Positions 2,463-4,277 of a DNA stretch of 4,324 bases are shown here, in pieces (positions within the stretch are counted from its first letter, which is position 1; each line of letters opens with the position of its first letter). Position numbers and translations under genes: made by a program. Below the pieces are notes generated by a model. It worked only from the letters and a program-made list of their open reading frames with translations, made no database searches and was not told the DNA's origin. The DNA is taken from the IMG/VR virus record IMGVR_UViG_3300000059_000077, positions 1 through 4,324 of that record. One strand, 5' to 3'. Origin of the DNA: a virus. Taxonomy: Duplodnaviria; Heunggongvirae; Uroviricota; Caudoviricetes.

Positions 2463-2749
2463 AAATAACCTTCCTTTCTCCAGACTTCTTGTGTGCGAAA
2501 AACACCTTCTGCATGCATCAGGCGTAATTCTTCTTTGGTGTAATCGCTGGTTTTTACCCGCCCGTCGATTAAATCGTGGCACGAGCTACAGGCAATCGCT
2601 GCCTGCATATCGTGTGGTTTTATCGCCGTTCCACACGTTCCCGCCAGTCGGTAATGCGCCAGCACAGACGTTTCAGGATTGTGATTGCAGTATCCAGGGA
2701 TTCTGACCTGGCACATCTGGCCCCGCGCCACTTTACGTAAATTCACCAT
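2459..2749 (-). CDS. YbcO-like (DUF1364-type) Cys-rich putative nuclease/zinc-binding protein, 96 aa
   Basis: 96 aa with five cysteines (C13, C21, C39, C54, C57). Its size and position just upstream of Q match DLP12 ybcO. Its start overlaps the upstream stop (TAATG) and its stop overlaps the Q start (ATGA). Confidence 0.65.
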   Translation of the reverse strand: MVNLRKVARGQMCQVRIPGYCNHNPETSVLAHYRLAGTCGTAIKPHDMQAAIACSSCHDLIDGRVKTSDYTKEELRLMHAEGVFRTQEVWRKEGYL

Positions 2750-3348
2750 TACGCAAACTCCAGTAGCTGCGCGGCCACATTTTCGACTTGTTCCGGAGAG
2801 GAAAATTTACGGAACAGGATCCAGTTCCACAGCACATTCAGCACAGATTTATAAACCTGCTGAAACTCGGTTTCGTCCATATTCGCAAACGCGATGGATT
2901 TCGCTCGACGCCCGCGGCTACCGTCCGGATAAATATGCTCGGTGTAAAATCCGGCCTGAATGGTTACCCACTCGCGGAAAGCCTCAAACGACTTTAGCAA
3001 TGCCGTATCCCGGGTTCTGCGTGTCGCAACTGTATTCAGATATTGCTCTGCGGCTTCGCTCAGAGCTGGCGTATGTTCCCGGCCTACTGATTCACACAGG
3101 TAATCAACGAATCCTGAAACCAGTTTTCGTTCGCGAGGCGTGATCGCCCCTCCGACCGGAGTCCAGTAATCGAATCCGAGTTGCAGAAGTTTGAAAAAAC
3201 GCTTATGGAATGCGTAGTTACGAACGCGCTTAAAATCAGCGTGTATCCACTCGCCTATTTTGATTTGATGCAGAAAATCACAACTCTCCGGCGTCGCCGG
3301 GAGAAGTAAACCAGAAGAAGTTTGTTTGACCAGTTGTATATGCGCCAT
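2749..3348 (-). CDS. Phage nin-region protein of unknown function (199 aa; possibly DUF1367-like)
   Basis: Long ORF with a GGAG SD 6 nt upstream of the ATG at 3348. The track's TTG start at 3360 is less likely. The stop overlaps the next gene's start. The family assignment is from memory of a roughly 200-aa phage family and is not verified. Confidence 0.7.
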   Translation of the reverse strand: MAHIQLVKQTSSGLLLPATPESCDFLHQIKIGEWIHADFKRVRNYAFHKRFFKLLQLGFDYWTPVGGAITPRERKLVSGFVDYLCESVGREHTPALSEAAEQYLNTVATRRTRDTALLKSFEAFREWVTIQAGFYTEHIYPDGSRGRRAKSIAFANMDETEFQQVYKSVLNVLWNWILFRKFSSPEQVENVAAQLLEFA

Positions 3349-3407
3349 TGTTATCTCCAATGGCGCTGTAGGTTGCCAGTTGTTCAGGCTGGCTTACGAA
3401 TTATAAC

Positions 3408-3581
3408 TCATTCCCGAACCACCTTGAAACCGAGCCTTTCCAGGTATTCAATGAATGCCTCGATAGATAAAATCACATGATCATCAGGAATTAACGTTGT
3501 GTAGACAACTTTCCCATTCTCAACGCGCACAGCATAGAGGCCATTTTCACTAAAAATTTCACGCAATTCTTCGATTTTCAT
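3408..3581 (-). CDS. Hypothetical small protein (57 aa), absent from the ORF track
   Basis: Hand translation gives MKIEELREIFSENGLYAVRVENGKVVYTTLIPDDHVILSIEAFIEYLERLGFKVVRE. A GGAAGGA SD lies about 8 nt upstream of the ATG at 3581. Its position between hok and the nin-like genes corresponds to rem in K-12 Qin. Confidence 0.45.
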   Translation of the reverse strand: MKIEELREIFSENGLYAVRVENGKVVYTTLIPDDHVILSIEAFIEYLERLGFKVVRE

Positions 3582-3730: not shown

Positions 3731-3760
3731 ATTAAAATAAAAAACCCGCCGAAGCGGGTT
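3731..3760 (-). terminator. Strong intrinsic terminator ending the hok transcript
   Basis: Minus-strand RNA AACCCGC-UUCG-GCGGGUU forms a 7-bp stem with a UUCG tetraloop, followed by UUUUAUUUUAAU. It sits 68 nt downstream of the hok stop codon. Confidence 0.8.
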
Positions 3761-3828
3761 AAGTGCGGGTGCGTTGAGGATGCCTGACACATCAGAGGTG
3801 GCGAGGGATTTCTCCCCCGCCTGGTCTC

Positions 3829-3984
3829 TTACTCCTCAGGTTCGTAAGCTGTGAAGACAGCGACCTCCGTCTGGCCGGTTCGGATTCGTACCTCGCAGAG
3901 GTCTTTCCTCGTTACCAGTGCCGTCACTATGACGGTTAAACAGATGACGATCAGGGCAATTAACATCGCCTTTTGCTGCTTCAT
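3829..3984 (-). CDS. hokD: Hok/Gef family type I toxin (51 aa), HokD/RelF-like
   Basis: Sequence MKQQKAMLIALIVICLTVIVTALVTRKDLCEVRIRTGQTEVAVFTAYEPEE. It has one N-terminal transmembrane helix and the LCEVR motif typical of Hok/Gef, and matches my recollection of K-12 HokD (RelF). An AAGGAGAAG SD lies 6 nt upstream. Confidence 0.9.
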   Translation of the reverse strand: MKQQKAMLIALIVICLTVIVTALVTRKDLCEVRIRTGQTEVAVFTAYEPEE

Positions 3985-4103
3985 AGCCTGCTTCTCCTTG
4001 CCTTTCGGCACGTAAGAGGCTAACCTACATGTGTCTAGCATGAAATTGGCCTCAGATTAATGTTAAGCGTCTTGCAGGACGCGTAATGTTAACTGGGGCT
4101 TCT

Positions 4104-4140
4104 CTATCTGCCTTTTGGTGTTCATGCCTGAGGCAGATAG
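4104..4140. repeat. Perfect 9-bp inverted repeat (CTATCTGCC / GGCAGATAG) with a 19-nt spacer, upstream of hok
   Basis: Read directly: 4104-4112 CTATCTGCC and 4132-4140 GGCAGATAG. The spacer contains the palindromic GCCTGAGGC. Confidence 0.6.
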
Positions 4141-4193
4141 CCTCAAGCACCCGCAGCAATTCTACTTAACTCTCCTTTTCCCGCAAACCGTTT

Positions 4194-4277
4194 TTATCCC
4201 CAGCGGCAAATCGAATACACCACCAGAGCCACCGCCATCGCAATTCCTACCGTGGTAAATGCCTCAGGCCAGGTCAT
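4194..4277 (-). CDS. 27-aa hydrophobic micro-protein (single predicted transmembrane segment)
   Basis: Sequence MTWPEAFTTVGIAMAVALVVYSICRWG. A near-consensus SD AGGAGGTG lies 5 nt upstream of the ATG at 4277. The start overlaps an upstream reading frame's stop as ATGA. Confidence 0.35.
   Translation of the reverse strand: MTWPEAFTTVGIAMAVALVVYSICRWG

Follow-up and report, generated by a model that had tools for sequence, protein, structure and literature searches.

A predicted type I toxin-antitoxin cassette, hok/mok/sok of the hokD/hokW subgroup, in a lambdoid prophage segment

Results

Gene content of the prophage segment

The window, meaning the whole stretch of DNA analyzed (4,324 nucleotides), carries a hok toxin gene with a long structured leader. 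Every substantial gene in it is on the minus strand, and together they make up the nin/Q segment of a lambdoid prophage (Table 1). The hok cassette is located in the nin region, upstream of the genes for DUF1367, YbcO and the Q-like antiterminator. The window is a mosaic prophage missing from our collection of complete E. coli genomes. None of these genomes contains the exact mosaic or matches the window at 99% or better, and the best match covers 92% of the window at 94% identity.

Table 1. Positions of genes, RNA elements and promoters in the window
Feature	Position	Strand	Basis or remark
tRNA-Thr(UGU)	46-121	minus	downstream of the methylase and the Q region
N6/N4 DNA methylase	288-1334	minus	
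PHROG 331 ORF	1485-1820	minus	
Q-like antiterminator (DUF1133, PHROG 753)	1908-2582	minus	
YbcO	2459-2749	minus	
DUF1367	2749-3360	minus	
57-aa ORF, PHROG 340	3408-3581	minus	
Full-length hok mRNA, predicted, ~414 nt, GGGUGCUUGAGG to terminator U-run	3739-4152	minus	RF01794 model position 1; alignment; terminator
Intrinsic terminator of hok mRNA	3739-3760	minus	terminator scan; common to K-12 hokD
fbi (fold-back inhibition) element CCUCAACGCACCC	3767-3779	minus	pairs with tac, -21.5 kcal/mol; 49 nt past stop
3' UTR stem-loop GGCGGGGGAGAAAUCCCUCGCC	3800-3821	minus	present in every fold
hok ORF, 51 aa	3829-3984	minus	Pfam, PHROG, identity to K-12 HokD
mok ORF, 70 codons, in frame with hok, common stop	3829-4041	minus	ORF scan; same architecture as mokW and mokC
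hok Shine-Dalgarno (SD) AAGGAG	3994-3999	minus	read from sequence; K-12 hokD similarity starts here
Sok promoter, -35 TTGCCT (3998-4003), 17-nt spacer, -10 TAACCT (4021-4026)	3998-4026	plus	identity to 933W; R1 layout
dcb (downstream complementary box) GCCUC, within AGCCUCUUAC	4016-4020	minus	predicted; motif invariant across family
Predicted Sok antisense RNA, ~69-76 nt, 3' end 4101-4108	4033-4103	plus	mapped from 933W sokW annotation
mok SD GAGG	4050-4053	minus	8 nt upstream of mok ATG; equivalent to R1 GAGG 105-108
ucb / anti-SD box AGCCCC	4095-4100	minus	pairs with mok SD in MFE fold; equivalent to R1 70-75
tac (translational activator) element GGGUGCUUGAGG, mRNA 5' end	4141-4152	minus	folds; Rfam consensus; conserved across genera
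Predicted hok/mok promoter, -10 TAGAAT (4164-4159), -35 TTGCGG/TTTGCG (~4187-4181)	4159-4187	minus	inferred from sequence

Several smaller features surround the cassette. Stx-type lambdoid prophages carry tRNA clusters downstream of Q, which the placement of the tRNA-Thr(UGU) gene resembles; in the E. coli genome RMDEC465, tRNAs for Ile, Arg, Thr and Gly occupy the equivalent place. The neighboring ORFs of 27, 57 and 111 residues have no NCBIfam match, and the first of them also has no PHROG match. This 27-aa ORF (4194-4277, minus) encodes a hydrophobic peptide, MTWPEAFTTVGIAMAVALVVYSICRWG, has a strong SD, GGAGGTGAATCG, before its ATG and ends directly upstream of the predicted hok promoter. 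By-eye translation of the aligned 933W and STEC308 DNA indicated an open frame there too, with substituted residues, and neither record annotates it. It could encode a small membrane protein linked to the hok cassette. A 35-aa ORF (4052-4159, minus) and plus-strand ORFs across the leader had no Pfam match or other support, and were discarded as chance ORFs in a structured leader.

Sub-threshold matches to an isrK-like Rfam family (gathering score 50) are found on the minus strand at 1808-1881 (19.8 bits) and 3739-3820 (30.5 bits). The first is directly downstream of the Q-like antiterminator gene and holds a strong terminator, GCCCGCTTTTTGCGGGTTTTTTTT. A short pR'-tR' transcript is expected directly downstream of Q in lambdoid phages. 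The isrK and rsmX matches at 3739-3825 were rejected as a separate small RNA. Their scores are below threshold (30.5 against 50 and 23.3 against 56, respectively), and they draw mainly on the hok 3' hairpin and terminator.

The Hok toxin and its relation to K-12 hokD

The toxin matches Pfam HOK_GEF (PF01848) with 81.6 bits (cutoff 22, E=3e-23) and PHROG 251, ‘MokW-like host killing’, at 2.8e-33. It scored 48.5 against an NCBIfam Hok subfamily model, below the cutoff of 73, which can be attributed to the narrow scope of that model. A preliminary description of this DNA had matched the protein to HokD (RelF) of K-12, and the two are identical in 51 of 51 residues. The Tyr47 codon UAC and the G following it form a UACG motif (3843-3846, minus), which is kept in the window. 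TadA A-to-I editing is reported to recode the tyrosine of this motif to cysteine in the hokC, hokD and hokE mRNAs (preprint 10.1101/2025.08.07.668861).

In K-12, hokD belongs to the relB-relE-hokD (relBEF) operon of the Qin prophage. The window does not have this arrangement. As the preliminary description had noted, there is no RelB or RelE coding potential upstream: neither an ORF nor a Pfam match was found, and a full leader is present, with the 27-aa ORF and phage DNA upstream of it. K-12 hokD and the window are nearly identical in DNA over a stretch that starts ~15 nt before the hok ATG and takes in fbi and the terminator, and both loci are upstream of a prophage Q-like region. Further upstream the two differ. 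In K-12, relE abuts hokD; the hok promoter, tac, ucb, mok start and Sok are all missing, and there is no match to the leader model RF01794.

Since the similarity to K-12 starts only ~15 nt upstream of the hok ATG, with relE beyond it, the relBE-linked, leaderless hokD is the derived form, and the window holds the complete, evidently ancestral one. A relBE neighbor is a peculiarity of the K-12 Qin prophage, where relBE removed the hok leader, and not the norm. Further Escherichia, Shigella and Kluyvera genomes also contain a leaderless hokD of the K-12 type, preceded directly by relE-derived sequence (loci L017, L019 and L048 of our collection). The relBE-hokD fusion is thus a lineage that has spread, not an accident of K-12.

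The mok reading frame

The canonical mok coupling frame had been reported as absent from this DNA. The observations behind this claim were reproduced. Stops are frequent in one alternative frame across hok. The second runs open from 4024 to ~3838 (62 codons), lacks any ATG, GTG or TTG and has ATG-TAG ahead of it at 4030-4025. In frame with hok, a 70-aa ORF (4041 to 3829) begins at the ATG at 4041, which has GAGG 8 nt upstream (4053-4050). The conclusion was mistaken, because this in-frame ORF of 70 codons has the layout annotated as mokW in 933W and mokC in K-12. The GenBank record of 933W lists a 213-nt mokW sharing the hokW stop, together with a sokW antisense RNA. In the K-12 RefSeq record, mokC starts 57 nt upstream of hokC, in frame and with the same stop, and sokC is on the opposite strand. 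The 19-residue N-terminal extension of the window Mok differs from that of MokW only at residue 3, which is D in the window and N in MokW. The aligned N-termini are MLDTCRLASYVPKGKEKQA (window), MLNTCRLASYVPKGKEKQA (MokW) and MLNTCRVPLTDRKVKEKRA (MokC). Judged by this homology, the in-frame ORF from 4041 is mok itself.

From species-representative genomes and IMG/VR we gathered 143 related loci. Together with the window and an R1-type plasmid leader, these gave 62 distinct leaders. A GAGG-type SD and an ATG 56-58 nt upstream of the hok ATG are found in 58 of the 62, from Escherichia, Shigella, Photorhabdus, Citrobacter, Pantoea, Erwinia and Kluyvera. The distance between the two ATGs is 57 nt, which places mok in frame, in 44 leaders, 58 nt, as in plasmid R1, in eight and 56 nt in six. 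The remaining four include relE-adjacent loci of the K-12 type and one truncated contig. In tblastn searches, residues 1-69/70 of Mok were covered in many of these genera. The start of mok thus keeps a constant position across the family, with a frame that drifts relative to hok.

The R1 leader has the mok AUG at 116 and that of hok at 174, an offset of 58 nt that puts them out of frame (PMC9841398). We verified this offset on a plasmid leader identical to R1. The expectation that mok lies in another frame than hok fits plasmid R1 only. The open alternative frame in the window (VSLLRAERQGEA...) is the homologue of the R1 Mok frame, disconnected by a 1-nt difference just after the mok ATG. In R1, translation up to the hok start region matters, and the Mok peptide itself does not (PMC9841398). 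A drifting frame at a fixed start is consistent with this view, in which the essential event is translation through the hok ribosome-binding site.

The hok mRNA leader and its predicted folding

The covariance-model search proposed in the preliminary description gave a strong match. RF01794 aligns with 4152-3979 over the full model (1-157), with 110.7 bits against a gathering score of 59 (E=1.8e-25). In control searches, K-12 hokC scored 118.3 bits, 933W 113.5 and R1 88.9, below the window, and the leaderless K-12 hokD had no match. The Rfam name of this family is ‘sok antitoxin’. Its matches are nevertheless on the hok-mRNA strand in the window, hokC, 933W and R1, opposite to the annotated sokC of K-12 and sokW of 933W. 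In effect RF01794 models the sense strand of the hok 5' leader, ending at the hok AUG, and the strand of a match must not be taken as that of Sok. The three control matches are at 602-754 in locus L003, 4223-4397 in L001 and 400-576 in L005.

The 5' end of the mRNA was placed by position 1 of RF01794 and by alignment to 933W, hokC and R1, and its 3' end by the terminator. The range given earlier for the locus, 3731-4140, leaves out the first 12 nt of this mRNA (4152-4141), which are tac, and the hok promoter (~4187-4159). The 933W sequence is identical over the predicted promoter region, and K-12 hokC shares its geometry, with TATAAT followed after 6 nt by GGGTGC.

The 414-nt mRNA is predicted to be highly structured, with an MFE of -171.7 kcal/mol (z=-8.48 against shuffled sequences). 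Pairing of the 5' and 3' ends, which the preliminary description had suggested examining, is found in the full-length MFE fold between tac (4152-4141) and fbi (3779-3767). In the same fold the mok SD is paired with ucb (4100-4095), and the R1 control folds alike. This model corresponds to the published closed form of the R1 hok mRNA. Comparison across genera indicated that the tac-fbi pairing is conserved. In relatives, fbi is located 45-56 nt after the stop, and the two elements show compensatory changes, GGGUGC/GCACCC to GGGCGC/GCGCCC and GAGG/CCUC to GAAG/CUUC, with G-U intermediates. The 3' UTR stem-loop is probably the protective 3' hairpin expected in the processed mRNA. Its analogue is the last stem-loop of the truncated R1 hok mRNA (PMC9841398).

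The alternative, open form was modeled as well. The Rfam consensus structure holds the tac-ucb stem, and the window fits the consensus. Constraining the 3'-truncated RNA to tac-ucb pairing leaves the mok SD paired with dcb, and this conformer is 1.9 kcal/mol above the MFE (1.7 in R1). In the MFE structure given by RNAfold for the truncated RNA, the SD stays closed and tac is in a local hairpin; the open form is near-optimal, likewise in R1. Since the R1 control behaves alike, we regard this as a limit of MFE prediction and not a fault of the locus. Refolding to the open form is therefore as plausible in the window as in the R1 paradigm. All of these sequence elements are present in the window, at positions conserved in the family; their pairings are predictions.

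The Sok antisense RNA

No plus-strand promoter and terminator for a Sok RNA had been seen by eye. This stands for consensus signals: in a scan against promoter and terminator consensus, neither the hok promoter, the Sok promoter nor a Sok terminator was detected. It does not stand for Sok as such. Plus-strand positions 3990-4032 are identical to the 933W DNA upstream of the annotated sokW, and a Sok RNA is predicted directly downstream. The layout is TTGCCT, 17 nt, TAACCT, 6 nt and G at 4033; in R1 it is TTGCGC, 17 nt and TATCCT. Takada et al. found that a promoter mutant abolished the antitoxin activity of sokW (PMC8621323). In the corresponding ‘pro-less’ mutant of Sp5, primer YO-421 alters exactly TAACCTA (PMC8621323). 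The -10 hexamer matches the consensus at only 3 of 6 positions, which makes the by-eye miss understandable, and the hok promoter escapes the scanner because its -35 is weak. The scan was set aside as uninformative, because these promoters are weak relative to the consensus and yet identical to annotated or mutated ones.

The predicted Sok RNA begins with a single-stranded 5' tail of 15 nt, which is complementary to the mok AUG region. It continues into a hairpin of -28.7 kcal/mol and ends in a tail, CUUCUCUAUC. The order of 5' tail, hairpin and U-rich tail is like that of sokW, sokC and R1 Sok.

These results bear on an alternative reading, in which hok lacks both mok coupling and Sok control and is silenced in some other way, or in which a 70-aa toxin is made from 4041 without antisense control. 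The missing start codon in the R1-type frame and the negative plus-strand consensus scan are in line with it. Against them, the in-frame ORF is what databases name mok in loci of the hokC/hokW type, and mok starts 56, 57 or 58 nt ahead of hok in different members of the family, with SD and ATG at a fixed position. The Sok promoter and RNA are conserved, the former matching the promoter mutated experimentally in sokW, and RF01794 matches the leader strongly. We consider this alternative so improbable as to deserve almost no weight. A hok/mok/sok cassette with in-frame mok and antisense Sok accounts for the locus.

A short A-run next to ucb

The leader of the window is unusual at one place. Between the leader hairpin and ucb, the A-run reads GAG-AA-GCCCC (4101-4102), and the equivalent run is AAAA in all 89 related loci compared. 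An exact 50-mer spanning the short run was found in one of 1654 matching E. coli genomes, RMDEC465. This 50-mer is all that RMDEC465 has in common with the window, and its assembly contains many frameshifted prophage genes. On the Sok strand, the loss of 2 nt shortens the U-run after the hairpin from UUUU to UU, which might weaken Sok termination. The loss may equally be neutral, since the U tail of R1 Sok is also broken.

The variant could be taken to mean that a canonical layout has decayed or become deregulated, the 2-nt deletion weakening the Sok terminator and altering the tac-ucb junction, so that the locus is silent debris or a leaky toxin. Its rarity (none of the 89 related loci, one of the 1654 genomes) and the frameshifted prophage genes of the only genome sharing it fit this idea, as do the many chromosomal hok loci reported inactive (bioRxiv 10.1101/2025.08.07.668861). 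The sequence itself argues otherwise. The two deleted nucleotides are unpaired in the Rfam consensus, the model score is still 110.7 bits and every predicted pairing survives. The interrupted U tail of R1 Sok, GGGGCUAUCUUCUUU, is a precedent, and Hok, Mok, the promoter, fbi and the terminator each have an intact sequence. Decay is therefore a very unlikely explanation, and we retain the reading of an intact cassette.

We also considered that the contraction of the A/T-run is a natural regulatory variant and, separately, that the 70-aa Mok-Hok protein is a functionally distinct second toxin isoform, with a role beyond coupling. We think this improbable. If it were true, the shorter U-tract and the changed tac-ucb junction might alter the length or abundance of Sok, or the refolding of the hok mRNA.

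Comparison with hokW-mokW-sokW, hokC and plasmid R1

The closest characterized relative is hokW-mokW-sokW of the Stx2 phages 933W and Sp5 (VT2-Sakai), with ~92% nucleotide identity over the whole cassette. Both loci are in lambdoid prophages. They have in common the in-frame 70-codon mok and the positions of its SD and ATG, are identical over the Sok promoter region and agree in their tac, ucb, fbi and Sok hairpin elements. The differences are limited. Four of the last seven residues of Hok differ, TAYEPEE in the window and VDYESEK in HokW. The 5' tails of the two Sok RNAs differ at several positions, which suggests that each Sok is specific to its own mRNA. An intrinsic terminator follows directly after fbi in the window and is missing in 933W, and the A-run is 2 nt shorter in the window. 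The cassette is located in the nin region in the window, and near attR in 933W.

K-12 hokC/mokC/sokC (gef) also has mok in frame (57 nt), with the motif MLNTCR in place of MLDTCR in the window. Its tac, GGGUGCUUGAGGCU, is the same, and ~75% of columns are identical in a three-way alignment including hokC. Its Sok hairpin is shorter than that of the window. It is a chromosomal backbone locus, with IS186 immediately downstream in K-12.

In hok/mok/sok (parB) of plasmid R1, tac, ucb, mok SD, mok AUG, dcb, hok SD and fbi follow one another as in the window and are spaced alike, and the Sok promoter is likewise inside mok. R1 differs in having mok out of frame with hok, 58 nt in place of 57, and in being plasmid-borne. 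At the protein level the distance is considerable: HokW, a close relative of the window toxin, is only 44% identical to R1 Hok (PMC8621323).

Distribution of the cassette

The cassette is widespread. It is found in ~1,000 or more complete E. coli genomes, with a median of two and up to eleven matching places per genome, and in hundreds of IMG/VR phage contigs. It has been reported that prophages show an enrichment of hok genes (bioRxiv 10.1101/2025.08.07.668861). Some genomes have two hok cassettes within ~600 bp (L032, Photorhabdus temperata; L049; L054). Sok 5' tails differ between cassette copies, which suggests copy-specific antisense control.

A number of matches come from unrelated taxa. 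Assemblies with Mok/Hok at 94-98% identity to the window are a Veillonella parvula MAG (L011), Xanthomonas pisi (L015), Acinetobacter idrijaensis (L043) and two further loci (L055 and L058). Some of the contigs are very short, 431 nt in X. pisi and 275 nt in A. idrijaensis. The DNA of PP818812.1, ‘Actinobacillus phage vB_Apl-pPE4’, is 97% identical. These matches look like E. coli contamination, mis-binning or doubtful host assignment.

Discussion

Our analysis indicates, with a probability of about 0.93, that the minus-strand locus at 4187-3739 is a type I toxin-antitoxin system, an intact hok/mok/sok cassette belonging to the hokD/hokW subgroup, in a lambdoid prophage. The preliminary description had left open how the toxin is silenced. 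It had named two kinds of evidence that would speak against its reading, a covariance-model match to a canonical arrangement and comparative data revealing a mok frame, and both were found. With a canonical leader (RF01794), a mok start, a Sok promoter and a predicted Sok RNA at the locus, the question it raised has a likely answer.

By homology to R1 hok/sok and Sp5 hokW-sokW, we propose the following mechanism. A weak promoter would produce a stable mRNA of ~414 nt. In the full-length RNA, tac at the 5' end would pair with fbi at the 3' end and ucb would hold the mok SD, so that the RNA is neither translated nor bound by Sok. Slow 3' trimming would take off fbi, allowing tac to pair with ucb and exposing the mok SD. 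Ribosomes starting at the mok AUG (4041) would then traverse the hok ribosome-binding site and allow Hok synthesis. As mok is in frame with hok, its product would be a Hok extended at the N-terminus, 70 residues in length. A constitutive but unstable Sok of ~70 nt, made from the plus strand from ~4033, is expected to pair across the mok start region, block mok translation and lead to cleavage by RNase III. Hok would be made only once the supply of Sok stops, for example upon loss of the element or prophage induction, as for hokW-sokW.

The Sp5 locus offers a guide to function. There, hokW and sokW form a functional type I toxin-antitoxin pair: HokW acts as a toxin, and sokW suppresses it in partial dependence on RNase III and Hfq (PMC8621323). 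Upon induction with mitomycin C, sokW disappears and HokW appears in the inner membrane, and deletion of the locus halves phage release (PMC8621323). The window cassette probably works by the same mechanism and may have a similar role. We infer its transcription starts, 3' processing, toxicity and biological role from these relatives. Intact chromosomal hok loci tested earlier gave no post-segregational killing, as cited in a preprint (bioRxiv 10.1101/2025.08.07.668861), so ‘intact’ is no guarantee of ‘active’.

The window cassette is of an already described, canonical kind. It carries two lessons for annotation. The mok and hok frames coincide in the hokC/hokD/hokW subgroup. K-12 hokD, a truncated derivative, is a poor reference for the layout of a hok locus.
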